Part shown: positions 225 to 54,602 of the stretch, piece by piece
Layout of the letters: each line of letters opens with the position of its first letter
Numbering within the stretch: the first letter of the stretch is position 1
NCBI RefSeq assembly: GCF_963921235.1
Contig: NC_086120.1
Span: forward strand, 23,126,001-23,190,000
DNA length: 64,000 nucleotides
Origin: Mobula hypostoma
Lineage: Eukaryota
Reading direction: 5' to 3'
Made by a program: the position numbers and the translations under genes
The notes under the pieces: generated by a model
What the model saw: the letters and a program-made list of their open reading frames with translations, nothing else
The model's database searches: none
What the model was told of the DNA's origin: nothing

Positions 225-1310
225 GCACCTCAAGGATGCGTGCTTGGCCCATCGCTCTGCTCTCTCCACACTCATGACCGTGTCTGGGCCCAGCAGAAAC
301 ACCACCTATAAGTTCACTGTTATGTTGGTGCGTGGCCAAGTGGTTAAGGTGTTTGTCTATTGATCTGAAGGTCGCTAGTTTGAGCCTCAACTGAGGCAGT
401 GTGTTGTGTCCTTGAGCAAGGCACTTAACCACACATTGCTCTGCCACGACACCAGTGCCAAGCTGTATGGGTCCTAATGCCCTTCCCTCGGACAACATCG
501 GTGGTGTGGAGAGGGGAGACTTGCAGCATGGACAACTGCCAGTCTTCCACACAACGTTGCCCAGGCCTGCACCCTGGAAACCTTCCAAGGCGCAAATCCA
601 TGGTCTTACGAGACTAACGGATGCCTAGAGAAAGTTCACTGTTGATGGCCGAGTCTCAGACGGTGACGATGAGGTGTGCAGTAGTGAAACGGACGGGCTG
701 GTGGAGTGGCGTCACGACCACAACCTTGCTCTCAATGACAATAAGACCAAGGAACTGATCGTGGACTTCAGGAAGGAGAAGTCGAGGGAACAACAGCGGT
801 CCTCATTGAGGGACCAGCAGTGGAAAGAGTGAACAGTTTCACGTTCCCGGGTGTCAACATCTCAGAAGATCTATCCTGGGCCCAACATATCGATGCAATG
901 ATGAAGAAGGTACACCGGCAGCTAGATTTCATTCGGGGTTTTTAGGAGATGTGGCGTATCACTAAAGACTCCAGCAGATTTCTGCAGAGAGCATTCTAAC
1001 TGCATCACTGTCCGCTATGCACAGGATCAATAAATGCTGCAGGTGGAGAAACAGGACAATGGTGCTGGGATGGGATGAGTTGGACAGCTTCCCAACTCAT
1101 CCCATCCCAGCACAGTGTCCTGTTTCTCCACAGCAGCTAGAGCCACCTATATTTGTACCCATGTACACTCCCTCAATTTTTTTCCTTTTTGTCCTGTTTA
1201 ATTTTTATATTTCTTGTAATTTATGTATTATTATGTATTGCATTGTACTGCTGCTGCAAAATAACAAATTCCATGGCATATGCCAGTAATATTAAACCTG
1301 ATTCTGATTT
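225..1310 (+). mobile_element. Degenerate Rex1/Babar-type LINE, RT region plus 3' tail, interrupted by a SINE at 322-631
   Basis: Translates to APQGCVLGP..., TTYKF, LVEWRHDHNLALNDNKTKELIVDFRK and ERVNSFTFPGVNISEDLSW; 3' tail ...aaacctgattctgatt at ~1295-1309. Confidence 0.8.
322..631 (+). mobile_element. tRNA-derived SINE (family A) with an RTE-like 3' tail
   Basis: A-box-like tggccaagtggttaagg and degenerate B-box agtttgagcc; flanked by direct repeat aagttcactgtt (310-321 and 632-643); second copy at 18802-19085. Confidence 0.85.
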
Positions 1311-1319
1311 CATTCAATG

Positions 1320-1600
1320 ATCCTTCCCTGCTTGCCATCTTCACCCTTTCCACCATTAAACCCCATTTGCTGCTTCCCCTCATCATACTCGTCCCCATTT
1401 CTCAGCACATCTGTCCTTTCCCTACACTGTCCCAATCCCAGCTTGCATCCCCCTCTCCTTCACCCCACTCTCCCCTTCTCGCTGCCACCCCACATCGTCC
1501 TCCTCCCCTCCCTCATCCTCAGTTGTTATATCCTTCCCCTCCCTTTTTCTTGCCCACCCTTTTCTCTACCCCACCTCTCTCTCTCCCTGCCCCTCACCAC
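1320..1600. repeat. Low-complexity C/T-rich (polypyrimidine) tract
   Basis: Strong C/T bias seen directly; the Pro/Leu/Ser-rich ORFs here are compositional artefacts. Confidence 0.8.
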
Positions 1601-1903
1601 AGTTCCCTCTAAGCTGTGTGGGTGAGCGGCCGCACAGTAACTGAAATGCTCGCGTGTACATAGCCTTTGTAGCCAGGCAGCTAGAGAAAGTCTATGAAAC
1701 ATGGAAGATCTTCTTTGTTGTTTTGTATTTCATTATACCCTTCAATTAATAAATAAAATCAAAATTATGTGATTTTTCAATTATTTTAGTGGTATGTATA
1801 ATACAAACATTTAAAATGCCGCGCAGTTTTCAGGCCCTGTAAAAATTTCCTGTTCAGAGCAATGACTGGTCTTAGAAGTTGTAAAAAAATAAGGGGAACA
1901 TTG
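1597..1903. mobile_element. Probable hAT-type MITE
   Basis: Imperfect terminal inverted repeats cagttccctctaa / taaggggaacattg; no clear TSD. Confidence 0.45.
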
Positions 1904-2339
1904 TTACCCTTCTTAGTCCCGTTTCTGCACCCCATCCTTCTCCCCCAGGGAAGGAGTAGATGTTTCTTTGGCCAAGGAATCTAAAACCAGAGCACACAAT
2001 TTCAAAATAGGGAGGTTGTTTAAAAGCATGACAAGGAGGCATTTCTTCACTTTGATGATCCTGAACCTTTGAAATTCTCTGTCCAGGAGTGCTGTGGCTG
2101 GCCAGACGCTATTTTCATTCAAAACACAGATTTCTTGTTATTAAGGGAAACGAGGATAGTACTGAAAAGTACCGCTGGACTATAAATTCAGCCGGATTTC
2201 AGTGATTGAAGACCAAGTTTCAATGCCAGATGGCCTATACCTACTCCTGTTCCACATGTTGTTTCATCTTGCCCACATTTTCCTCCTTCCTCGCCTGTAT
2301 CTCCTCCACCTCTCTCCAGTCTCTGCCCTCGTAGCCCCC

Positions 2340-2650
2340 TTTATCCTACAGCACGCTGCCGCATAGCTCCAGCGACCCACGATTTGATCCTGACCTTGGG
2401 TGCTGTCTGTCCGAAATTTACATATTCTCCCCTCCAGCCACATGGTTTCCCTCCGGATACTCCGTTTCTTCGTCTACCTTAGGCTGCCGGCTACTGTAAA
2501 TCTCTCTGGCAGTCGGCTGGTAGTTACAAATAAGAATGAAAGGGGAGCTGAGCGGAGTGCGCTGGGGAGAGGAGGTTACCTGGTTTAGGAGTAGGCTAAT
2601 GGGGGTGGTAGCAGAGCTCTGATGGCTGGCATAGACTCAAAAGGGCGAAT
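2340..2650 (+). mobile_element. Degenerate V-SINE (HE1-like)
   Basis: Core ctccagcgacc...tttgatcctgacc...gctgtctgt...ttctcccc...ggtttccctccggatactcc. Related copies at ~21140-21395, ~30560-30760(-), ~43560-43870, ~48110-48355, ~59440-59720(-) and ~61670-61880. Confidence 0.65.
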
Positions 2651-2689
2651 AACCTCCTTTTACGGCATTAGAACACACGAAATAAAATA

Positions 2690-3340
2690 ATCCCTACGGT
2701 AGACGAAGGGAGGGGCGAACGCTGCCTCTTCCCAATTCTTCCACCATTCTATTCCGCACTTCCGTATAAAGGAAGCGCTCAATGCCGGGCGGTAGCACAG
2801 CAGGAGAATAAGGTCCGCCCCCCTGTCTGCCCCTGATTGGACGGATGACCCAGACGCTCAGGATCGCCTCCTTTCCTGTGGTCCTTCGAGCCATCAATCA
2901 GCATCCCCGCAGCCAGCGGGCTCGGCGACGGGAAATCCCGCCTCCCCGCGGCGGTGATTGGCGCGGCCCCGGAGGCTGGCCCCGCCCCGCCCGTCCCGGA
3001 TTGGCCGCCGCGACGTTCTGTTTTGGAACGTTGCCGAGTGTCAGTGTAACAAATCGGCGGTGTTTCCGCTGTGGGAGAAGTCGACTCGATACAATGCGAG
3101 CGTGAATTAGGAGGAGGTTGAGGGAGAGGCAGCGGTGCACAAGCAACGCCATGGACAATCAGGTAGAGGCGCCGCAGGCCGGGCTGCAGCCCCGCTGGAA
3201 GCAGCACCCCCTCCCTACCCCTTTCCCCTGCCCTGTTGTCTCGCATGCATTTCGAGTCCCGATCCCTCGGGCCTCCTGCACAACCTCAGCGACGCGTACA
3301 GCACAGCGTGAAAGTGCACCGTGCTCACTGGTGGAATTTT
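2690..3340 (+). promoter_or_regulatory. MLLT1: CpG island / promoter and 5' UTR of MLLT1
   Basis: Sharp rise in CpG and GC content. Inverted CCAAT boxes (gattgg at ~2835, ~2957, ~2999), GC boxes (ccgccc at ~2815 and ~2982-2992), ETS-like cacttccg at ~2757, E2F-like ttggcgcg / tcccgcc; directly upstream of the ATG. Confidence 0.85.
3151..3162 (+). CDS. MLLT1: MLLT1 (ENL) coding exon 1, M-D-N-Q
   Basis: Kozak gccATGG, then ATG GAC AAT CAG followed by donor gtagag. Spliced to 62389 it gives [24 protein letters not shown], the ENL N-terminus (AF9/MLLT3 begins MASSCAVQV). Confidence 0.93.
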
Positions 3341-4899
3341 GAAAAATCACCACCGGTTTCGTTTGGAAAGTTTTGTTTTATTTAAATCATAGACCAATGC
3401 AGCGAATCAAATGTTGTCGTCTTCTCAGCTAAACTACAAAGAGCTCTGCGATATGAATATAATCTATTTAGGTTTAGTTGACAGGTACATGGTTTGAAAA
3501 TGCACTGTACTGTACATCTTTAAGGAAGGCCATTTACAGTCTCTGGAGCCAGGCTGAGAGATCCTGAATTTAATTATGTGTTTGAGGGTTGTAGGTTGAA
3601 CATTTAAGAAAGGAAGCATTAAGCTTTTAAGATATCTGTTTCAATATTAAACTTTAAGGTTTGGAGATGGAGGAGTTGGGAATAATACAAAATTGAGGCA
3701 AGGATTTTTTCCTTCAGGAGGATCGCGACAAAAAAAATTAAAATAGCAATTACGTTTATATATATCAAAATCATATTGGAAAGCTATCAGCATACTGTCT
3801 TGTGCCCTTTAGGATATTAAAATTATTAATAGTAATCACTTTAAGCTATTTCATGAAGCCTTTTCAGGGGAATCTTGACGTACATATTGGGTGTTGAAGC
3901 ATTGTCCATACAGGATTGCAAGATTGCTTTATGTCTTCTACATTAAAAAATGTTTTTTTGCTCAAAGCATTTTCAGCATCCTCATCTATTGGTATTCAAC
4001 AAGTTGACACTCTTGCAATCCATTGAAATTTCCAAAACAATAAAAAAAAATCTGAGTTGTTTTACAAAGCAAACTTTGGTAGATGTGTAAATAGGCAGCT
4101 AATGTTTGGGTTTGGTACCTTTATGATTTTGAATTCTTAGCCATCATTTAACATTTCTAAGATAGTGTGTATGCTTGTGTAGGTTAGGACAATCATTAAA
4201 CAGCACTGGCCGCTGGGAAGTTGATTGCTGTGACATTTTAAATTCTTTCCAGTACTGCGCAAACACATCTCCAGTTGGCGGTACTAATTTTACAAGGCGA
4301 AGCAGATTTGAATTTGGATCAAAGGGTTATATTTTCCTGCTTCTTTTGTAATATTGTCTGTGAAGATACTAATAACAGAAAACCAAGCAGCTTCATCATT
4401 TCTCTTGCATTTATTAAACATACATCCTTTTTTTTAAGAGCTCAAAATCAATGCCAGCTATGATAAGTAGAATATTTTCTGGGCAGTCATTTGATTTGAA
4501 GGATTTCTTCCTAGGTGAAATTGACTGTAATCAACTTGTGTGTTGTTAGCCTTGTGCTGTCTCACAGGGACCTACTAATGGTGCTGTAGTCTTTGCGTGA
4601 GATAACTGCTTCGATGTTTTTGATAATAGACTTGAAATAAAACCAATTTTCTTGTTTTCAAACAAAATTCTATTCTAAATTATAATGGCAGTTTTAGTTG
4701 CCTCTTCAAGTGGACAATCATTATTTTTGGACAAGGATAATGTCCATTAACAGTTTGGGGATTCTTCAGCCTGAATGTGTGGACACTCCATGGCTGCTTC
4801 TAGCTGATGTGTCCAGTAGAGATTGCTTAACTGAATTTTAAGCCAACCTGTTTTTTTAAAATGCCCCCTTTTATCAAATGGCAGTAAGGATTTAAGGAT

Positions 4900-9735: not shown

Positions 9736-11567
9736 ACAGAAATGTTTGCTCTTAATATTTTAATAGCACGTGTTGTTTAATAGCAGGAGAGGTCTGGGGA
9801 AAATCTCAGTGAACGTAGGACTGATTTTAGCTGTCTTTTGATCAAAAGCCCACCAGCACTTGCTTCCCAAACCTCTCGATCAAGAATGGATATTTGTGCC
9901 AGAGTTCATTTGTGGGGTGTGGGTATGATGGAGGAGGGGAGGGTGAGTAAGTGAGTGGAGAAGAACAGGAAAATGGGAGGGGATAAAGATGAACAACTGA
10001 CAGTGCCTCTACAGCAAGGTGGGATTACATGGCACTAGTTAACAATAAATTATCATCAGTTAGGGTTATTGGTGAAATCCAAAATTGGCACATGTGGTGA
10101 TTGAACCCAGGCCTGCTACTGGTTTCCAGAGCACACGTCCACTGAACTACCAGGCAAAATAGCATGATGTCACTTAAATACTATCAGTGGGTCAGGCTGC
10201 GAGTCAACACTGCTCCTTATTTTGCTTTGGCTTTACATTCAAGCCCCTCGCAATCAGAGCCTGGAACAGGAATCCACTGTGATTGGATGGTAGCTGCCTT
10301 GGAAATGAAGCCAAATCAGTAACAGTTGTCTGGACTTTCTCAGAAAGCTCACGGAGAAGGTGGCTAACAGTGTGTGCAGGGAGTGGGGTGGCACAGGACG
10401 AAATAAAACTATAGTTGGTTGTGCTTTATATGGGGATGGGGGCAAGGCAGGTAATGTTTAAAGTAAATTTATTATCGTAGTACATATGTCACCATACACT
10501 ACCCTCAGATTCCTTTTCTTGCCGGCATTCACAGAACAAGGGGCAATAAAATCAATGAAAAACTATGACCATGAATAATGAAAGCTAATGAAGAGCATTA
10601 CTGAAAATATTTTTTAATGTATCAATCTGGCAGTTTTCATGACCATTTCCCTCCCCTTGTTAACCCCCAAATTACTGGATTTATTGAATTTGTTTTTCTC
10701 ATTTGCTATGCTGTGATTTGAACCTCTAACCTTTGACTAAGATCCATTGTATCCCTTTATTGTTTTCACATCCAATCCAATTCTGGCATGTTTGCTACTC
10801 CCAATTTTTGGATTATATTGCCTGGGAAAATCTAAACTATGTTATCAAGTCCTGGCATTGTCACTAATTTCAGATTCTTTGTGCTTGCTGACCGATAAAG
10901 GCTGGGTTGAGCAAGAAGCTATTATTGGAAGAGTGTGCGGTCAGACATTGAAGTACCCTTTTAATCATGTTAACTTGGATACAGTGTGAAGTGTATTTTC
11001 CAACATCTGCTTTGGGGGAGATGTTGACCTTGGATATCATTGGTTACTGTATCTTTCTGGATCTGTCATTTGACTTTTGCCAGTTGACGATTTTCAGAGC
11101 TTTTTATAATAGAAGAGTTTTATAAAAGCTCTGAGACGCTGGTCCTGTTTAATATTAGTATACAACATGAAATTCTTACTCTTCTCAGACATCTACAGAA
11201 GAAAATCCTGAAGAACGAGTGACAGAAAAAACGTTAGAGACCCCAATGCTCCCCTCTCATACACAAACAGCATCAAAGCATCACCCCTCCCCTTTCCCCC
11301 ACTTGTTCTAGTCCAGCTGTCCCCAACCACTGGGCCTTGGACCGGTACCGGGCCGCAAAGCGTGTGCTACCGGGCCGTGAGGAAACGATATGTGTCAGCT
11401 GCATCTTTCCTCATTCCCTGTCATGCACCGTTGAACTTGAACATGGGGTTGCCAACTGTCCCATATTTGCCGGGACATCCCGTATATTGGGCTAAATTGG
11501 TTTGTCCCATATGGGACCGCCCTTGTCCCGTATTTCCCCCGCTAAGGTAGAGTGTTCCTATGAAACA

Positions 11568-13320
11568 CTCAGCTATGTGCGGAACCAAAGGAAATGGGGG
11601 AGATCTTAAATAGGTTTTTTGCGTCTGTATTTACTAAGGAAACTGGCATGAAGTCTGTGGAATTAAGGGAATCAAGTAGTGAGATCATGGAAACTGTACA
11701 GATTGAAAAGGAGGAGGTGCTTGCTGTCTTGAGGAAAATTAAAGTGGATAAATCCCCGGGACCTGACAGGGTGTTCCCTTGGACCTTGAAGGAGACTAGT
11801 GTTGAAATTGCGGGGGCCCTGGCAGAAATATTTAAAATGTCGCTGTCTACGGGTGAGGTGCCGGAGGATTGGAGAGTGGCTCATGTTGTTCCGTTGTTTA
11901 AAAAAGGATCGAAAAGTAATCCGGGAAATTATAGGCCGGTAAGTTTAACATCGGTAGTAGGTAAGTTATTGGAGGGAGTACTAAGAGACAGAATCTACAA
12001 GCATTTGGATAGACAGGGACTTATTAGGGAGAGTCAACATGGCTTTGTGCGTGGTAGGTCATGTTTGACCAATCTGTTGGAGTTTTTCGAGGAGGTTACC
12101 AGGAAAGTGGATGAAGGGAAGGCAGTGGATATTGTCTACATGGATTTCAGTAAGGCCTTTGACAAGTTCCCGCATGGGAGGTTAGTTAGGAAAATTCAGT
12201 CGCTAGGTATACATGGAGAGGTGGTAAATTGGATTAGACATTGGCTCAATGGAAGAAGCCAAAGAGTGGTAGTAGAGAATTGCTTCTCTGAGTGGAGGCC
12301 TGTGACTGCTGGTGTGCCACAGGGATTAGTGCTGGGTCCATTGTTATTTGTCATCTATATCAATGATCTGGATGATAATGTGGTAAATTGGATCAGCAAG
12401 TTTGCTGATGATACGAAGATTGGAGGTGTAGTAGACAGTAAGGAAGGTTTTCAGAGTCTGCAGAGGGACTTGGACCAGCTGGAAAAATGGGCTGAAAAAT
12501 GGCAGATGAAGTTTAATACAGACAAGTGTGAGGTATTGCACGTTGGAAGGACAAACCAAGGTAGAACATACAGGGTTAATGGTAAGGCACTGAGGAGTGC
12601 AGTGGAACGGAGGGATCTGGGAATACAGATACAAAATTCCCTAAAAGTGGCGTCACAGGTAGATAGGGTCGTAAAGAGAGCTTTTGGTACATTGGCCTTT
12701 ATTAATCAAAGTATTGAGTATAAGAGCTGGAATGTTATGATGAGGTTGTATAAGGCATTGGTGAGGCCAGATCTGGAGTATTGTGTTCAGTTTTGGTCAC
12801 CAAATTACAGGAAGGATATAAATAAGGTTGAAAGAGTGCAGAGAAGGTTTACAAGGATGTTGCCGGGACTTGAGAAACTCAGTTACAGAGAAAGGTTGAA
12901 TAGGTTAGGACTTTATTCCCTGGAGCGTAGAAGAATGAGGGGAGATTTGATAGAGGTATATAAAATTATGATGGGTATAGATAGAGAGAATGCAAGCAGG
13001 CTTTTTCCACTGAGGCAAGGGGAGAAAAAAAACAGAGGACATGGGTTAAGGGTGAGGGGGGAAATGTTTAAAGGGAACATTAGGGGGGACTTCTTCACAC
13101 AGAGAGTGGTGGGAGTATGGAATGAGCTGCCAGATGAGGTGGTAAATACGGGTTCTTTTTTAACATTTAAGAATAAATTGGACAGATACATGGATGGGAG
13201 GTGTATGGAGGGATATGGTCCGTGTGCAGGCCAGTGGGACTAGGCAGAAAATGGTTTGGCACAGCCAAGAAGGGCCAAAAGGCCTTTTTTTGTGCTGTAG
13301 TTTCTATGGTTTGTATGGAA
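11568..13320 (+). mobile_element. 5'-truncated young CR1-clade LINE
   Basis: Uninterrupted ORF2 portion; 3' microsatellite tail tttctatggtttgtatgg; approximate TSD tatgaaac / tatggaaac. Confidence 0.93.
11594..13243 (+). CDS. CR1 ORF2 reverse transcriptase domain (549 aa open; endonuclease lost by 5' truncation)
   Basis: KSPGPD, NYRPVSLTS, QHGF, YMDFSKAFD, GVPQG, SKFADDTK, ERRRMRGDLIEVYKI and FFTQRVV motifs. Confidence 0.93.
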   Translation: MGEILNRFFASVFTKETGMKSVELRESSSEIMETVQIEKEEVLAVLRKIKVDKSPGPDRVFPWTLKETSVEIAGALAEIFKMSLSTGEVPEDWRVAHVVPLFKKGSKSNPGNYRPVSLTSVVGKLLEGVLRDRIYKHLDRQGLIRESQHGFVRGRSCLTNLLEFFEEVTRKVDEGKAVDIVYMDFSKAFDKFPHGRLVRKIQSLGIHGEVVNWIRHWLNGRSQRVVVENCFSEWRPVTAGVPQGLVLGPLLFVIYINDLDDNVVNWISKFADDTKIGGVVDSKEGFQSLQRDLDQLEKWAEKWQMKFNTDKCEVLHVGRTNQGRTYRVNGKALRSAVERRDLGIQIQNSLKVASQVDRVVKRAFGTLAFINQSIEYKSWNVMMRLYKALVRPDLEYCVQFWSPNYRKDINKVERVQRRFTRMLPGLEKLSYRERLNRLGLYSLERRRMRGDLIEVYKIMMGIDRENASRLFPLRQGEKKNRGHGLRVRGEMFKGNIRGDFFTQRVVGVWNELPDEVVNTGSFLTFKNKLDRYMDGRCMEGYGPCAGQWD

Positions 13321-37692: not shown

Positions 37693-39310
37693 TTAAAGCA
37701 AACTGATCCTGGGACTGCGCAGTATTAGGAATACAGAATAAAGCATTAGCCAGATCAATAACAGCATAATAACTGTCAGTCTCAATGGAACAGTCCCCAA
37801 TCAGGGTCACAATGTCTGGAACAATTGTGGCCAGCGGAGGGGCAAACCGATTTAACTGGCGATAATCAACGCGCCACGAACCATCAGGTTTCCAAACTGA
37901 CCAGACGGGATGAGGCAGGACGAAGGGCGCCCAGGTTAGAAAGGGACTCGACTCTCACCAATTTCCTTGCCCTCCTGGGATGCAATATTGCTTGGCAATT
38001 ACTATTTGTGATGGCAAGAATATAAAGACAGGTTCCCACTCTGCCCTTCTAGCTCGAATAGATGCGTTCCTAATACCAAAAGCAAATTTGCCAAAGGGTG
38101 TTGTGATAGAAGTTCCCCTTAACAAATCAATTCCCAGAATGTTTTCAGGTACCTGGGAGATGGGCAAGGGGACAGACCGAGGAGGTCCCTTGCTAGTAGC
38201 ACTGCGGACCTTTGTTCGTACAGCATCTATAACCAATTTCCCTCCTATCCCTAAATACACACTCACTTCGGGTCTGTATATAGATCTGGATTCCCAGGCA
38301 ATGAGGTACCCTCAGCCCCAGTGTCCACCAGGGCGATTTGTCGCTGTTTATAGCCATGTGACCACCAAAGGGTAGGCCTCAGGTCTCCCTCTGGGACACC
38401 AGAAATGTGTGTTGCCATAGTAACAGCAGTGGTCCCGGAGCCCTGGCCACACCCCTAGGCCATGGGCTGGGTAACCCGCCAGCTGGGATCTAATTCATTC
38501 AAGTTTAGATATAACCGAGGAACATCCTGCTCTTTGGGGTTAACATCATAGTCCTCTGTGGAAGGGCAACTGGTTCCTTTGGGCTATCGAATGCAACACA
38601 CCTGTGTTGCAGTGCTCACTGTATGACACGTAGAACACCAGCAGGTGCACTCTGTCGATTCTTTCCTTATCCAGCCCTGCCCTTGGCAGGGATAGAAACA
38701 TTTCCTTCCTGCTAAGCTAGAAGAGGAGCTTTTCGATACTGACTGCTGTCGGCCGCTTTGCAGCATGCCGGGATTTAAAAATGGCCTTAACCTGCACGAG
38801 CCTGATCTACACCTGACCCTTCAAGTTGGGCCGATAGACGGCTAGTCTCAGCAACAGTCTGGCCCTAACAGACACCTTACCACCGAGAGGGTTGTCATTC
38901 CATCAGTTGGGTGCATGTACCAAGAGAAAAGGGGACTTCTTTGACCGTTAAAGGCATTATAATTAATAAATATAAATGGCAGATTGTGTTGCCATATCAC
39001 AGAGGCATGAAATAGCTCCAGGGGCGAGGAAACTCCTCCCAATCCAAAGGGGCAGGACAGCGAGCACAAACAGCTGTATAGCCCCTGCCCACAGCCCCGT
39101 CAGCTTGACCAGCCTGCAATTCAGACAATGGATCTGCCGTAAGTGAACCAGACGGACTTCATTCATTAACACTTTTAAAGAACACGGTTGGGAGGCTTCT
39201 AACTCCCATAGGCAGGTGAGCTAGTTGTGCAAGGATTTTTTTCCTGTCTTAACTGTAACGCTTCATATTTCTCAGTATTAAGTTCCATCTTCCACTTGTT
39301 TATTCCACCA

Positions 39311-42300
39311 TGTTATGTTTATGTAACTTCAAAACATTAAGCTAATTCAAACTAAGACACAGGAGTCCGAAATGTGAGTCTAACTTTGAGGCGTGTACAT
39401 ATCACTTGGTAGTGTGATGATGTATGCAGTTAACATATTTTTATGAATAACCTGTTGTGAATTATTTAAATGATTGAATACACTACACTCCTCCCTGCTT
39501 AGCTATAAACTCCAACTCAAGGAGAGAATGCATCTGAACTAAATACTCAGCATATTATATCATCCAACCACTATATACAGACATTGACAGCATACCAAAT
39601 TTAAAATTGTCCCACTCAGGCTTAAAGATTTAATTGCTGAGGAGGGTTTCTTACTCCTGTGGGATAATGTTTTTCCTGACAAGGGCGATCTCTCTGCTCG
39701 GCAGGTGAGACTTCAGACTGTGAAACAGTCTCGGGTTCTGGGGCCTCCTCCGTGCTGGTTGTAGGAATTGACTCTGAGACTGCAGGAAGTGGTCTGACAG
39801 CTCTGGGCTCCTTTCCTCTTTTTTTCTTTCTGGATCTACTTCGATCCCTTTTTTATTTTTCACGTTCTTTCTCTTTTTCATACTTCTTGTTCACATTATT
39901 TCTCTCCATCTCTTCCTCCTTTTTCTTCCAGCTTGTGTGTCTTGATCTTGGGTAGGTGCATTACATTCACTGGAGTATTCTCTTATTAGTCCTTCTATTG
40001 CTGCCATTACGACCTGATCTCTCCTCTTGGTTTCCTCATCCAGAACATCGTCTGATGTTCATATCTCTGTGGACTACTTTTTTTTGCATCTTCCGTTCAG
40101 CCAGCTGGTCTTTGCAACTGCTTTTACAAGCAGATTTTTGTCTTCCATTTGAAGTTCATGCAATAACCTTAATGCACCCAGAGTAGATTCTGGGTTTTAT
40201 ACTCACAAAAGCTGATTGCTTGCAACTTTCCTGAAGCTTGCTCAACTCTCTTCCAGCTTAAAACCAAGCCACATTTCCCAAGTAACTGCCTGATTAACAT
40301 ATCAGAAGCTTTCTCAGATATGTTGCCTACAAAAACTGTTGTAGTCGGACCACTGCTTTCAACACTTTCACACTTCCTCTGAGTAGTGTGGTCCTTCCTT
40401 GGTCCAGTATGCTTTCCAACCAGAGACTGGCACCAACACCTGTTTGTCCTCTGTGGGGCAATGGTTCATGGTGTTTGGCATGGAGACAGTTGTGGCATCA
40501 TCCTGTATCTTTCTTAATTAACTTTCAGTTGGCTTCATTGCAGGCAATGTAGCTTGCAAATGGTGGATGGCTCTCCAATCAAGTTGTAGTTGTCTCTGCC
40601 AATCATGACCCCACAATGCTGGTTCTTCTGCTTTTACCACATACACGCTCAATGTGGCTTGTTGGTTGTTGTATTTCACTGTTACAAATATCATTCCCAC
40701 AAGAGTTATCTTTTCTCCTGTATAAGTTCTTAGATGGCTGTCTGCAGGCCTCAATTTAGCATCTTTGAAATGCCATTTAGTATCTTTGTGGAATAATGGA
40801 AACTGCTGAACCAGTGTCCAATTCCATTTTAATAAATTTGCCATTTACTTCTGGCGTAAACCATGTTGCTTGTTTATTGTTAAATTTCACACTATAAATC
40901 TCAAGGCTACGCAAATCTGTGTTACTCTCGTCAGATTTTCCGTTAACAGTGTGCAGATTAGTGCTCTTGACTTTTTATCTTTATCTCTTCCCTGTTCAGT
41001 CTATTTATTCTTGTCTGTCTGACATGCTGCTTGTATGTGCTCTTTGTTGCATTTTTTGCAAGTTTCACCCTTAAATTTACATTTATTTGGTATGTGAGTT
41101 CCTGCCACATAGTTACGCAGTTTGTTCGGCTGGGCAGGGTTCTGTTTGTTGTGGTCCGTTGTGGCACATCGGGTACTATCGGGTGCCTTTTCCTTACCTC
41201 AACCCAGCACGGATGGAAAACGTGCAAGGATTTGAACCCAGGGCCATTGGCCTTGAGGTCTGGTGCTGATGCCATCACACCTCCAGCCAGCGGCTCTTGC
41301 TTAGATGTTGCAATTTTGTTCAAGTTCACTTTCATACCTGACTGCAACTCAATTGTGTCTCTGTCTGTGGTTTCCATTGAAACAGCAATTTTCACTGGTC
41401 ATTTGAATGTAACCTGAGCTTCAGTTGGGAGCCATTTTTGAATGCTTCCTTGTAAGATTCCGCAAAGTAAATGATCTCTTAGTGCATCATTAAGACCATT
41501 ACCAAACTGACATTGCTCAGACAATCTCTTCAAATCAGCCACAGACACTAAAATGAACTCCCCTTCCTTTTGAATCCACTTATGAAACCTAAAGCATTCG
41601 GCAATCAACAGTGGCCTGTGTTCTCAATGTTCCTGCATCTCTGTGACAATAGCAGCAAAGTTCATTTCTGATGGTTTAGATGGAGCCGTCAAACTTAAAA
41701 GCAAACTGTACGCCTTTAAACCCAAAATTGCACTCAGCAAAATTGGCACTCACTTCTCACTGGTTATTTCATTTGCTTGAAAATAGTGTTTCAGTAGTTC
41801 AGTAGTCATGAGCCAGTTACTTGTTGTGTAATAAACTTATCTGTTTTTCCGATGTTGCCAGCCATTTCTGATTTTTTTTTAAAAAAGTGATTGTTATCAC
41901 CCAGTACTCACTCGATGAGCCTGTGAATTCTTCCATTTACGGAATTTTTTTTTTTACTTCATCGCGTCTTCCCTTCCGAAGAACACGGGCATTTTGTAAC
42001 TCGATTGTTTCTCGCTGAGTTTTATTTTATTTCGAATGTCTCGCTCCACTTTAACAGGTTGGTAGCTGTGTTGGGCTCATTTTAAAATACCTCGTCGCCA
42101 ATGTTATGGTTTGTAGTTTCAAAGTATTAAAAGAATTAAATAAACTAAGACACTGGGAGTCTGAAATGCGATTTGAACTTCGTCTTTACTTTCAGAGAGG
42201 TGCGCACGTATCACGAAGTAGGGTGATGTATGCTGTTAACATTTTTACATAATAATCTGTAATTATTTAAATGACCAAGAATAAATAAATATATATAATG

Positions 42301-42390
42301 GCCACTGAGTATAGACTGGCTGGTGTGTTGTGTATTTAATATTTGAATAATTATATATTCAAAGATTATTGAAATACTAAATACACAACA
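39311..42390 (-). mobile_element. Non-autonomous Gypsy LTR retrotransposon carrying a captured RBM25 cDNA
   Basis: LTRs 42102-42390 and 39311-39487 (tgt...aca, homologous but diverged); PBS tggcgacgagg (42090-42100); PPT agggaggag (39488-39496); TSD cacca / aacca; decayed gag from ATG 41865 (IAECFRFHK..QKEGE, CQFGNGLNDALRDHLLCG); protease (MELDTGS, LRTYTGE, WGHDW); integrase C-terminal tail 39627-39818. Confidence 0.9.
39819..40484 (-). pseudogene. RBM25: Processed (intronless) RBM25 fragment: RRM and following coiled-coil / RE-rich pieces, frameshifted
   Basis: Minus strand: VLVP.VS.VGKHTGPRKDH; GPTTTVFVGNISEKASDMLIRQLLGKCGLVLSWKRVEQASGKLQAISFCEYK; [frameshift] PESTLGALRLLHELQ; LDEETKRRDQVVMAAIEGLIREYSSECNAP; KRDRSRSR. 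These are colinear with vertebrate RBM25 as recalled. Confidence 0.9.
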
Positions 42391-42403
42391 AACCAGCCAA
42401 TCT

Positions 42404-42912
42404 ATACTCAGTAGCCATTTTACTAGGTGTACTTGTACGCCTGCTCATTAATACAAATATCTAATCAACCAATCGTGTGGCAGCAATTTGATGCTTAAAA
42501 GCACACAGACGTGGTCAAGAAATTCAGTTGTTGTTCAGACCAAACATCAGAGTGGGGAAGAAATGTGATGGTGGAATGATTGTTGGTGCCAGACAGGTTG
42601 GTTTGCGCATTTCAAACTGCTGATTTCCTTTTCACACAGAACAGTCTCTAGAGTTTACAGAGAATGGTGCGAGAAACAAAAAAAAATAGTGAGTGGCGGT
42701 TCTGTGGGTGAAAATGCCTTGTTAATGAGAGAGGTCAGAGGAGAATGGCCAAACTGGTTCAAGCTGACAGGAAGACGACAGTAACTCATATAACCAAGTA
42801 TTACAATAGTGGTGTGCAGAAGAGCACCTCTGAATGCACAACTTGTTGAAGCTTGAAGTGGATGTGCTACAACAGCAGAACATGTAATCTGGCCGCTTTA
42901 TCAGGCACTGAG
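42404..42912 (+). mobile_element. Tc1-derived non-autonomous element (ctcagtggccacttt-type TIR); second copy ~49607-50107 on the - strand
   Basis: Terminus ctcagtagccatttt and transposase 5' remnant atcagagtggggaagaaatgtgat; the reverse-complement copy at 49680-50100 has cactctgtggccacttta and aaagtggccactga termini. Confidence 0.7.
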
Positions 42913-50218: not shown

Positions 50219-53200
50219 TGTAACACCCTGATTACGATTTTTACCGCTGTGCTGTAGGCATTTCATTTTAGCAGTTCTGTAAGAGCAGTCTGTTCTGCTT
50301 TCAGCTTGTTTGGGTTTGAGCCAAGCTGAATGGTTTTGTTGTTCCACTTAGGAATGTGATGTCAGCCAGTCAGGGTGGTGGAATTGGGAGAAAGTTCTAG
50401 AGAATGCTGGGTGGAGAGGTTTTGTGAGGGCCACAGGTGTGGGTTGAGGTCTTTTTTGGCGGGAGTTGGTAGAAGACAGGAGGGAAGATGGCGGAGGATG
50501 CTGTTCCTGTTGCACGAGGTGCTTTGTGCAGATGAATGGCTTCAGGGAGGAAGGACCAATACTCCTGTGGGGGAGCCCGTTTGTTCGAGATGGATTTCGA
50601 GCCACATTGGGAAGGTGGTGTGTGCTTTCACGCAGACTGATGGTTAGAGTGTGAGTTACAGGCAAGTTCAAGATGAGCTCCAACTTGTGTGCACATTTGA
50701 CTGTTTAATTATAATAGGCTCTTTTTGCTTTTTTTCCTCCTTTTTTTTCTTTGACAACTATTTGGTTAAGTTAAAGTTCATAAATATACTTTCTTTATAA
50801 TTGTATGCAGTGTGCAATCTTATTTCTTGCTGACGGGCAATTGCAAGGAGGTAGTGAATCACATAGCAGTCACTCAAACTGGGGTTTGGGTGGGTGAGAT
50901 GTCCCAACCTTAAGGGTTTGGCGGGACTAAAGTCACATGCACCCTGGACATGTGGAGTCTGAGAAAGGTGGGTTTCTTGCTGTGGAGTCCAGTGGCCGTT
51001 AGCGAGGGGCTAACGAGCCACATTTCCAGAGACACCCAGTAAAAAGGGGTTTCATTGTGGGGGCTTGTCTGGGATTGATTTTGTTAACTGCTCTGTGGTT
51101 GCCCTAAGAATTGATTAAGTGGGTTTTATGTTTAAGCCTGTGTTGAACTATTGGCTGGGAAAGTGATTACGATATGTGGTTATGCATGCCGCAGGGATTA
51201 AGTGTCAGTGCGATTCAGAGATTACCTGTAAATCATGCTTGTGTTCAGAGTAGGGTGGATACCCGTAGTCCCGATGAATTGTTGATTAGGGTTTTAAGTG
51301 CTGTTGGAGTATTAGGGAAAGTTATGGTCATGGAATGGCAATTTGTCTGTGCGGTGGGGAAAAATGAGTTAGTTCAGCTAGCGCTGACGTAATGGGAGTG
51401 GATCTGCCTGTTACCCTTGCAATACCCACAGAGGAGGGGTCATGGGCCATCCGAACTTTCAGAGAAGAGGGGAGATGGGTGAGGGTGCCAAGTTGAAAGT
51501 AGAGTTTCCCATAGCTGAGGACGGAGACTTTAAAGGAAAGTTGCTCTTGTTTCTGCAGAGTCAGGGGAAGGAGTTGTGAAAGGTCTACTGAGTCCTTCAG
51601 CTGCTGGTTTAAATCCTGAACTCATGTTGGCTATTACATCGCTGGTTGATAAATGCAGAAGTATACCTGTGGAGAGCCAAAGTTATTGTAAGCTGGGAGT
51701 ATTCTCTGGAGTCAAACCCACACCCAATGGGGAAAGAGAAGATGAGGTTTGGGCTGAGCGGACATCTCAGTCACTGGGAGAATGGCAGTACTCTGATAAT
51801 ATGAAAAGATTGAGACTGGTAGAGAGCTTAACGGGGCCGGCACCTGATATACTGAGGTTCCTCAAGGCGGAAAATCTACTAGCCACATCAGCTAGTTACC
51901 TGCAAGCTCTGGAAGGTGCTTTTGGCACTACTGGAAGTGTAGCTGACCTTTGGGTGAAGTTTAGGCACAGATTTCAGGGGGAAGGAGAGAAGTTGTCTGC
52001 CTGTACTTGCAGGTTGAAGCTGCTGCACTGCTTGAGCCAGAGGGGGCATTCAACTGCCTGAGAGAAATTGCTTGAGGGTGGAGCAAGTGGTGAAGGGCAG
52101 GCTGTCATGTGATGTGATTGCTCTACTTATTCGAACGACCCACAAGATGTGCCCTCCTCCATTTTTTACCGAGTTACTCGGAGAGGTTAGAGAGGAGGAA
52201 AACGCGTTGGAGAAGTGGGAGGCTTCCGTCGGCAGGGCACTGTCCTCGGTAGTAGCCTCTGTTGCTACAGCGACCCCTGATTCTACACAAGCGGGGGTTT
52301 TGCAGGATGTTGAGAAAGATCTGGGAGCCAAGGTATTCCGGATGATGTTGGTTGGTGCTGCCACCAAGCCTGACAAGGCCAGTACGAAGCCAGACCCGCT
52401 GGTGGGGCCTACCAAGGCGAGGGCTGCTGCTGACCAGAGAAGTGACTGGTATTTTCTGTTACAACTGTGGAGAAGATAGACATTTCCAGCGGGAGTGTGA
52501 AAGACAGCAAAAATCTTCACAAGGTAAATCAGCGGTTAATCAAACAGCGAAGGAAAGAGGTAAAACTACAGGGGGACCCAGTAAAGGAAGGGGCTGACTT
52601 TTCAGAGAGGATACATTCCCATCAGTGTATCAGGGAAAATACTAAAGTACCAAACACAATTCCTGAAGGTTTCATGGGACCAAGCTATGATGTATCCATA
52701 CAGATTGAAGGCAATTATGCTAGAGCTATACTGGACACAGGTTCTCAAGTTACTTGTCCCGCTTGGTGGCGCAATAACATCAGCGCCGGACTCCGGAGCG
52801 AAGGTTCCCGAGTTTGAATCCAAGTCAGGTTGAGTGTCGAGCTAGCAACTCGGCCTGGTAAAAATAAGAATAGCTTGCTGTGGAAACACCGATAAAAGAC
52901 GGTGCCCCGATAACTCCACTGCTGTGTTAAGGGCTATTCTTCTTCTCAAGTCACTTGGCTTTATAGATCCTTTTACAACCAGTATTTGACGCATTTACCA
53001 TTGATGCCACTCAGTGTCCCTGAGACTCGAGGGCTTAGTACTGATGAGTACCTGTACGATGGTTACTTGTCGTTGAAGCTGAACTTTTCGGAAGTAGATG
53101 TTGGAGGAACTAAGACTATTGACACACCCATGTTGGTCTGCCGGGATCCGATTGAAAAGGGTGGGGTTTCCATTCTTGTGGGGACAAACACTGCCGTTGT

Positions 53201-54602
53201 GAGAAGGCTCCTGGGAGCATGCAAGGAGAGAAATGGAGAGAACTGTTTGAAAACTTTGTCCATCCACCCCGTGTTCAGAGCTGCTTTTGAGAAGGTGCAA
53301 GTTCCTCCTAAGTGGGATGGTAAGCAGAAACCAAAAACTGTGTGGTACACCCAGTCTAAACCTGTCATGTTACATCCTGGAGGAGTAGCTGGAGTGACAG
53401 GAACCCTGAATTTGCTGGAATCTCCGAGAAATGGAGAAGAAGCTTAACTGAGAAGATGTTGGGACACGAAGATACGTTTTCTACTGACGAGTCTGATGTT
53501 GGTTATGCCAGGAGTACTTGCCACACCGTTGGAGTGACCGAGGACACCCCTTTCCGAGAGAGGTCTCGCCGGTTAGCACCAACGGAGGGTGAGGATGTTT
53601 GGCTGCATCAGCTTAAACGGGCGGAAGTTAAATTCAGTCATGGAGCGGGAGGACATGAGTCGCCGGAAGACATCAATGATAGACAGGGAGGTGCACTCTC
53701 TAGTAGACAGGGTCACAAGGGGTGGTTGAAGCTGGAGGAGCTGAAGGTGGGATAAAGAGGTCTCAAACCCCCAGAGAGGCTGGCCTGTGACGCACGGGGG
53801 GAACATCATCCATGTAGTGAGAAATGTCACTACCATTCATAAATAGATTGGAGCTCCTGACATCAGGAAATTCCTTTGAAAACCCTTGATGAGTTTCAAA
53901 GTCATGAGGACATGACTGTTTTAGCTGGGGGAGAGAGTGTAATGCCCTGGTTACGATTATTACTGCTATGCTGTAGGTATTTGATTTTAGCAGCTCTGTA
54001 AGAGCAGTCTGTTCTGCTTTCAGCCTGTTAGGGTTTGAACTGAGATAAAAGGCTTTGTTGTTCAACTTAGGAATGTGGTGTCAGCCAATCAGGATGGTGG
54101 AATTGGGAGAAGTTCTAGAGAACGCTGGGCTGAGAGGTTTTGTGAGGAACACTGGTGTGGGTTGAGGTCTTTTTTGGTGGGAACTGGGAGAAGACGAAGG
54201 GAAGGTGGCTGCGGATGCTGCCCCTGTTGCACAAGGTGCTTTGTGCAGATGAATGGCTTCAAGGAAGAAGGACCAATACTCCCTCGGGAGACCCATTTGT
54301 TTGAGATGGATTTCGAGCGACATTTGGGAAGATGGTGTGTGCTTTCACGCAAACTGAGGGTCCAGCACGCGAGTTACAGACAACTTCAAGATGAGCTCCA
54401 ACTTGCATGCATATTTGACTGTTCAATTATAAAGGAGCCTTTTTGTTTTTTTTTTGCTTTCTTTTCTTTAATAACTCTGGTTAAACTGACGTTCATAAAT
54501 ATACTCTCTTTATAATTGTATGCAGTGTATGATCTGTTATTTCTTGCCGACGGCGATTGCCAGGGGGGCAGTAAATCACACAGCATTCACAGAAACCGGG
54601 GT
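50219..54602 (+). mobile_element. Gypsy LTR retrotransposon with PNMA-like gag, internally deleted
   Basis: 5' LTR 50219-51054; tRNA-Pro-like PBS tgggggcttgtctgggat (51058-51075); gag YCKLGVFSG..PTPNGE...RLVESLTGPA...YLQALEGAFG; knuckle CYNCGEDRHFQREC; protease AILDTGSQVT; RT start TPFRERSRRLAP; PPT then 3' LTR from 53938, truncated at ~54602. Confidence 0.9.

Follow-up and report, generated by a model that had tools for sequence, protein, structure and literature searches.

An RBM25 cDNA in place of the pol core of a decayed Gypsy-type element, probably one copy of a large non-autonomous family

Oncogene-transducing retroviruses acquire host sequence by template switching at microhomology and have a defective genome that needs a helper. 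LTR-mediated retrocopies were described by Tan et al. 2016 (PMC5131818), who, in the available text of that article, found 3, 7 and 10 of them in all in mosquito, zebrafish and chicken, respectively, and also proposed their secondary spread as non-autonomous elements. For plants, the accessible portion of a review (PMC7264820) places transduced ORFs in one or a few copies. No publication on an RBM25-carrying LTR family was found in a literature search that lay outside subscription journals, Repbase and Dfam, and the word ‘RBM25’ is absent from the main text, as far as it was available, of a 2026 ray-genome preprint.

The window analyzed here is a stretch of 64,000 nt, and positions are coordinates within it. 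On its minus strand, from 42390 to 39311, lies an element of 3.08 kb that is very probably a decayed copy of a non-autonomous Gypsy-type family, in which a spliced RBM25 cDNA replaces the RT-RNase H-integrase core. The family likely goes back to one capture by two microhomology-guided switches, followed likely by spread to ~2,000 sites through the enzymes of its relatives. The features are listed in the order in which the element is read, with RBM25 exons in our own numbering and identities relative to the host gene.

42391-42395, minus strand: upstream target-site copy TGGTT, a 4/5 match to the downstream copy; the fold-back arm retains TGGTG beside the LTR start
42102-42390, minus strand: 5' LTR (TG...CA), carrying a 58-nt fold-back duplication of its own start and flank
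42090-42100, minus strand: primer-binding site (PBS) TGGCGACGAGG, at a position that fits a PBS
40980-41865, minus strand: gag, with ATG at 41865, stops and frameshifts, and a zinc-knuckle remnant near 41075-41020
41134-41300, no strand assigned: ~150-nt insertion within gag, private to the window copy
40498-40900, minus strand: aspartic protease and pol linker, with D-T-G at 40818; Pfam gag-asp_proteas at E 4.7e-5, below the cut-off
40491-40497, minus strand: 5' switch point TGCCACA (7 nt), common to parent pol and host exon 3; the join keeps the reading frame
40488-40497, minus strand: last 10 nt of RBM25 exon 3, 10/10 identical to the host
40440-40487, minus strand: 48-nt in-frame RBM25 exon (host C1:99832633-99832586), 87.5%
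40277-40439, minus strand: RBM25 exon 4, where the RRM begins, 91%
40219-40276, minus strand: RBM25 exon 5, 88%
40066-40218, minus strand: RBM25 exon 6, 83%
39927-40065, minus strand: RBM25 exon 7, up to the common exon 7-to-exon 9 deletion, 85%
39830-39926, minus strand: RE-rich remnants of exon 9, up to the exon 9/10 join
39812-39829, minus strand: first part of exon 10, with the 3' switch zone; the word GAGAAGAAA is decayed in the window copy
39622-39819, minus strand: pol/integrase C-terminal tail, in a reading frame that differs from that of RBM25
39488-39500, minus strand: polypurine tract (PPT)
39311-39487, minus strand: 3' LTR, which falls ~70 nt short of the LTR of another copy, L117 (247 nt)
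39306-39310, minus strand: downstream target-site copy TGGTG

RT, RNase H and the integrase core are absent from the window element, and RBM25 cDNA stands in their place. The initial annotation, made from the letters alone, had named both LTRs, the PBS, gag with its zinc-knuckle remnant, the protease, the integrase tail and the PPT; all were recovered on the minus strand, so that the cis signals it considered to be kept (LTRs, PBS, PPT) are indeed present. Its description of the copy as old and dead agrees with the stops, the frameshifts and the two LTRs, which differ at 33 of 168 aligned sites. The 5-bp target-site duplication (TSD) that it reported is real but imperfect in place: the copies agree at 4 of 5 positions (TGGTT and TGGTG), and the duplication is accepted because the fold-back of the LTR start and flank keeps the fifth base. 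The two fold-back arms (42294-42351 and 42365-42422) measure 58 nt each and enclose a 13-nt loop; they are spanned by a contig from another organism (B, below), so the fold-back duplication is old. We take the PBS to match tRNA-Ser, and the insertion within gag is, by eye, presumably SINE-like. Four sub-threshold Rfam matches were put down to chance or to the fold-back.

Other repeats are visible in the window. Directly outside the 5' LTR, at ~42400-42900, lies a very high-copy repeat whose summed contig depth, a quantity distinct from copy number, is 20-30 times that of the insert; we assume its end to be Tc1/mariner-like. On the plus strand, a 559-codon stop-free LINE-type reverse transcriptase frame at 11564-13243, presumably CR1-like, suggests a young insertion, and remnants of a second, different LTR-type element occupy 51534-53447, with frames that we take to be gag- and protease-like.

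The insert was identified as RBM25 by domain and protein searches. A 98-aa stop-free frame gives an RRM_1 match above the Pfam cut-off; the insert has 227 protein database matches, and among the 120 listed, all that are informatively named are RBM25, the rest being unnamed or hypothetical, with a shark RBM25-like protein as the best of these 120 (69%). A PDB search returned generic RRMs only. The host RBM25 gene, located by a C-terminal protein query, lies on the minus strand at G000:C1:99.79-99.84 Mb; a PF01480 search of the same genome gave three matches, RBM25 not among them, which to our eye look like SRRM1 and PRPF3. Six exons of this gene align with the insert at 83-100% identity, with a zero-base gap at all five joins; beyond them lie what is left of exon 9, the exon 9/10 join and the beginning of exon 10. 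The matched exons extend over 29 kb of the host gene. Host introns are absent, which together with the exon joins bears out the origin from spliced mRNA already proposed for this segment. Exon 8 and most of exon 9 have been lost from the window copy through internal deletion.

The 48-nt exon (G000:C1:99832586-99832633, locus L041) encodes a peptide identical at 14/14 positions to the start of the shark protein, and this peptide is present in 1 of 115 fetched RBM25 proteins and absent from 114. Its match to a shark protein, in one of 115, points to a cartilaginous fish as the donor; judged from the sequence comparison, the exon is possibly specific to cartilaginous fish or alternative.

The parent elements explain what was replaced. 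A total of 322 loci match the 22 nt leading into the switch but not the chimera sequence beyond it; of 20 that were fetched, 17 read on into pol and three into unrelated sequence. Extended parent copies contain, in this order, RT (RVT_1, below the cut-off), RT_RNaseH and the rve integrase (both above it), and the chimera's LTR is also present on parent copies. In parents, RT, RNase H and integrase occupy the 2.6-3.1 kb between the chimera's two switch points, which makes the insert a replacement and not an insertion; as the initial annotation had stated, it has neither a poly-A tract nor a TSD of its own. From its anatomy and Pfam types, the family is assigned to the Gypsy type: the order PR-RT-RNase H-integrase, TG...CA LTRs, a 4-6-bp TSD and the lack of space for env, with a pol stop ~120 nt ahead of the PPT, are all Ty3/Gypsy features.

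Both joins lie within short words shared by the two templates. The 5' switch occurred inside TGCCACA, so the insert starts ~10 nt earlier than annotated, with the last 10 nt of exon 3; both junctions do fall within pol as had been claimed, but the 5' one does not follow DDATTV at ~40485. The 3' switch occurred in the 9-nt word GAGAAGAAA, common to parent pol and host exon 10, and this join puts the pol tail out of frame with RBM25. Microhomology of at least 7 nt is expected at 0.06%, and of at least 9 nt at 0.005%, of random switch points, and the two words uphold the double template switching suggested from the first reading. A comparison of the protease-linker region in 59 chimeras and 14 parents gives both groups the same divergence, 0.126, and a tree in which they are intermixed: the two amplified together. 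The exact chimera-type motif occurs 202 times and the parent motif 322 times; from these counts, made with patterns of unequal strictness, the chimeric portion of the family comes to about one-third to two-fifths.

Amplification after capture, which the initial annotation had proposed to check by a search for the junctions, is well supported. Used as a DNA query against the genome, the insert returned 2,897 first-look candidates; 39 others that were scored are 76-82% identical, and all 29 other matches fetched are collinear with Gypsy sequence and share the same 5' join. The 30-nt join was found at 614 loci with at most two mismatches (69 exact), whereas the reversed control gave 0. When 38 copies selected on their insert were put through the 614-locus filter, 12 passed, and the family is therefore estimated at ~1,900 copies (95% 1,260-3,500), or ~1,500 with a smaller calibration (12/30 passing), the calibration set being small and biased. 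Of 68 copies that were extended, 23 yielded both ends. All 23 left flanks are distinct; the TSD matches at 4-5/5 positions in 12 of them (chance 2%), and the matches of 3/5 or less in the remaining 11 can be explained by decay and end-calling error. The LTR pairs of 12 copies have a median divergence of 0.168. A few groups of near-identical neighbors (L016/L030, L017/L019, L018/L022 and, at G000:C76:4.5-5.0 Mb, L172-L175) stem from segmental or tandem DNA duplication and not from transposition, and were dropped from the copy set.

The copies also record the extent of the capture. Exon 8 is retained in 7 of 66 classified copies (5 of 71 were unclassifiable), and the original capture therefore ran from exon 3 to exon 10. 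The exon 7-to-9 deletion is found in 54 of the 66, 29 of which have a further short form. No large common deletion was seen in gag-protease in 64 copies, a pattern that fits a need for Gag in cis without amounting to proof. A simple subfamily tree was discarded, as deletion classes do not follow point variants; the mismatch suggests that co-packaged copies recombined or that the same repeats were sites of deletion more than once.

Three other organisms (B, C and G, from three studies) each yielded many contigs across the insert. In organism B, contigs cross both element-flank borders with ~2% differences, which indicates that the window insertion is shared. The longest pieces from C and G, which cross no element-flank border, differ by 7-9%, against 18% for paralogues, and on this divergence are likely orthologues of the window copy. 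The burst is likely older than the splits from B, C and G, and the host range supported is cartilaginous fish only. An absolute date from a shark rate of 7e-10 (PMC10587355, in the part of the article available) was rejected, as that rate refers to generations and leads to an age that is impossible. In run X8, which is RNA only by guess, three short contigs at a depth of 4-6 are identical to the window copy and do not count as evidence of expression.

Aligned over 414 codons, from the ATG of gag to the join, 17 copies show 0 common-stop codons in the join frame, against 45 and 33 in the other two frames, and no common indel was found in the next 195 RBM25 codons; the amplifying form could thus have encoded a Gag-protease-RRM protein. 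For the analysis of selection, 71 of 100 copies were kept; the other 29 were truncated, aligned poorly or were duplicates and were set aside. Measured against the commonest letter of each column, the 71 copies diverge by 0.109, 0.105 and 0.101 at codon positions 1, 2 and 3, and a single copy is free of both stops and frameshifts. The synonymous fraction is 0.248, against 0.26 (0.24-0.28) in a neutral simulation, and no synonymous excess was found in any sharing class, all of which lie inside the neutral range or on its margin. A low pN/pS of 0.64 among variants present in 4-7 of 48 copies was no longer apparent once judged against a simulation of neutral change that used the mutation spectrum seen in the copies. 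Since insertion, decay of the RBM25 part has been neutral, and an intact captured ORF under purifying selection, of the CrocERV29/31 kind, was not found. The earlier statement that the family ‘spread a splicing-factor RRM’ therefore holds for the DNA, with no detectable selection on the RRM frame. During the burst itself selection is hard to see because the star-like tree has almost no internal branches. All 17 near-fixed differences between family and host are synonymous and may lie on the host or the element side; ~15 host synonymous changes are predicted over the same period from the copies' own synonymous divergence, and the closeness of 17 to this expected host gain places the capture shortly before the burst.

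The origin that we favor begins with a spliced RBM25 mRNA that would have been co-packaged with element RNA in a germ-line particle. Minus-strand synthesis would then have jumped from the pol tail to exon 10 and, later, from exon 3 to the protease linker, at the observed common words, with the loss of 2.6-3.1 kb of pol. The product retained LTRs, PBS and PPT; it may have supplied its own Gag and protease as a Gag-PR-RRM polyprotein and borrowed RT and integrase. Its copies have their own TSDs and are equal in age to RT-bearing relatives, and common deletions are confined to the purine-rich 3' part of the insert. The RBM25 part would have been a passenger filling the RNA; only one of the copies sampled has that frame unbroken. 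We infer co-packaging, trans-complementation and translation of the fusion from the sequences. Dispersed identical joins with their own TSDs, together with a contemporary autonomous partner that has the same LTR, are the features of a non-autonomous LTR family.

A different role for the captured RRM can be considered, in which the in-frame Gag-protease-RRM protein aided packaging, export or escape from splicing, silencing or RNA surveillance and so drove the success of the chimera. The in-frame 5' fusion would fit, although chance alone would put a third of joins in frame, and so would the whole gag-PR-RRM frame, which is clear of common stops and indels. Common deletions occur only after the RRM (exon 7-to-9 in 54/66, none large in gag-protease in 64 copies), but the deleted part is rich in purine repeats and deletion-prone regardless. 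The share of the chimera in the family (202 against 322 exact motifs, about a third to two-fifths) could likewise reflect a shorter genome, which may aid replication by itself. With no synonymous excess over neutral simulation, and with the two linked variants found in the 71 copies both non-synonymous, we regard a useful RRM as unlikely; if true, it would be the retrotransposon counterpart of oncogene capture, with a gain for the element instead of cell growth.

Domestication by the host, with at least one copy turned into an RBM25-derived gene or a regulatory RNA and all others left as debris, is very improbable. The KIT-ligand ORFs of CrocERV29 offer a precedent (PMC4299795, in the portion available), and 13 of the best 150 of 5,555 protein-level candidates are stop-free in the matched stretch, but a few such stretches are expected by chance among thousands. 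These best 150 are only 64-85% identical to shark RBM25, and none stands out as preserved, whereas the host gene is 87-100% identical to the same protein per exon. Among 42 database candidates (154-492 aa), no chimeric protein with a natural junction-spanning frame was found, a weak test. It is barely credible that a LINE-made RBM25 processed pseudogene landed in a resident Gypsy element and the composite spread afterwards: what we take to be LINE-like RT sequence is plentiful in the window, but poly-A, an own TSD and an unbroken target, the features of such a pseudogene, are all lacking. The insert stops inside exon 10, both joins lie in microhomologies, and 2.6-3.1 kb of pol is missing, not pushed apart. 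Observations that the initial annotation had listed as contrary to its reading (a best match other than RBM25, RBM25 introns, marks of a LINE-made retrocopy) did not occur.

Capture by template switching followed by spread as a non-autonomous family means that when an LTR element captures a host mRNA, that one event can give rise to a major vertebrate repeat family. Its thousands of copies, dated deletion series and co-amplified parent provide a natural test of cis-preference and helper dependence. The copies also preserve, in fossil form, an ancestral RBM25 transcript of cartilaginous fish, the 48-nt exon included, and the shared insertions are usable as presence/absence markers for the group. 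In these genomes, thousands of RBM25-like matches can inflate gene-family counts and mis-map RNA reads.

All tested features of LTR-mediated retrocopies are found in the RBM25 chimera: it is intronless, replaces part of internal ORFs, has microsimilarity at its joins and lacks a poly-A tract and an own TSD. As far as the text of PMC5131818 extends, its cases likewise consist of partial intronless mRNA in place of part of the internal ORFs, are often in frame, lack poly-A and an own TSD and bear signs of further retroposition; microsimilarity is present at both joins with a median of 6 bp, compared with 7 and 9 nt here. Those cases are young and in few copies, whereas the RBM25 family stems from one ancient capture, with 614 loci counted, ~1,900 copies estimated and amplified deletion derivatives. 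Maize Bs1, in the available parts of PMC5131818 and PMC7264820, resembles it in captured host exons, switch points that are the same in all copies and secondary retroposition, but is a plant element with three donor genes and one to five copies. CrocERV31 with nectin3 and CrocERV29 with KIT-ligand (Chong et al. 2014, PMC4299795, as far as available) are, similarly, ancient vertebrate LTR elements that acquired host mRNA and later multiplied. They are, however, retroviruses in 6 and 9 copies, in which the capture either replaced env or removed nothing and the ORFs are intact and under purifying selection, in contrast to the Gypsy-type anatomy, replaced pol core and neutral decay of the RBM25 chimera. 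The capture of FAM8A1 by HERV-K, as cited in the available text of PMC5131818, shares template switching at microhomology and a defective, helper-needing genome; unlike it and the oncogene-transducing retroviruses, the RBM25 chimera has no env, amplified within the cell and gives no sign of a selected captured protein. The mechanism is thus already known as LTR-mediated retroposition. What is unusual is an in-frame Gag-protease-RRM fusion without a sign of selection and, since the precedents compared have 1-9 copies in the texts available, the scale, which exceeds theirs by two orders of magnitude.
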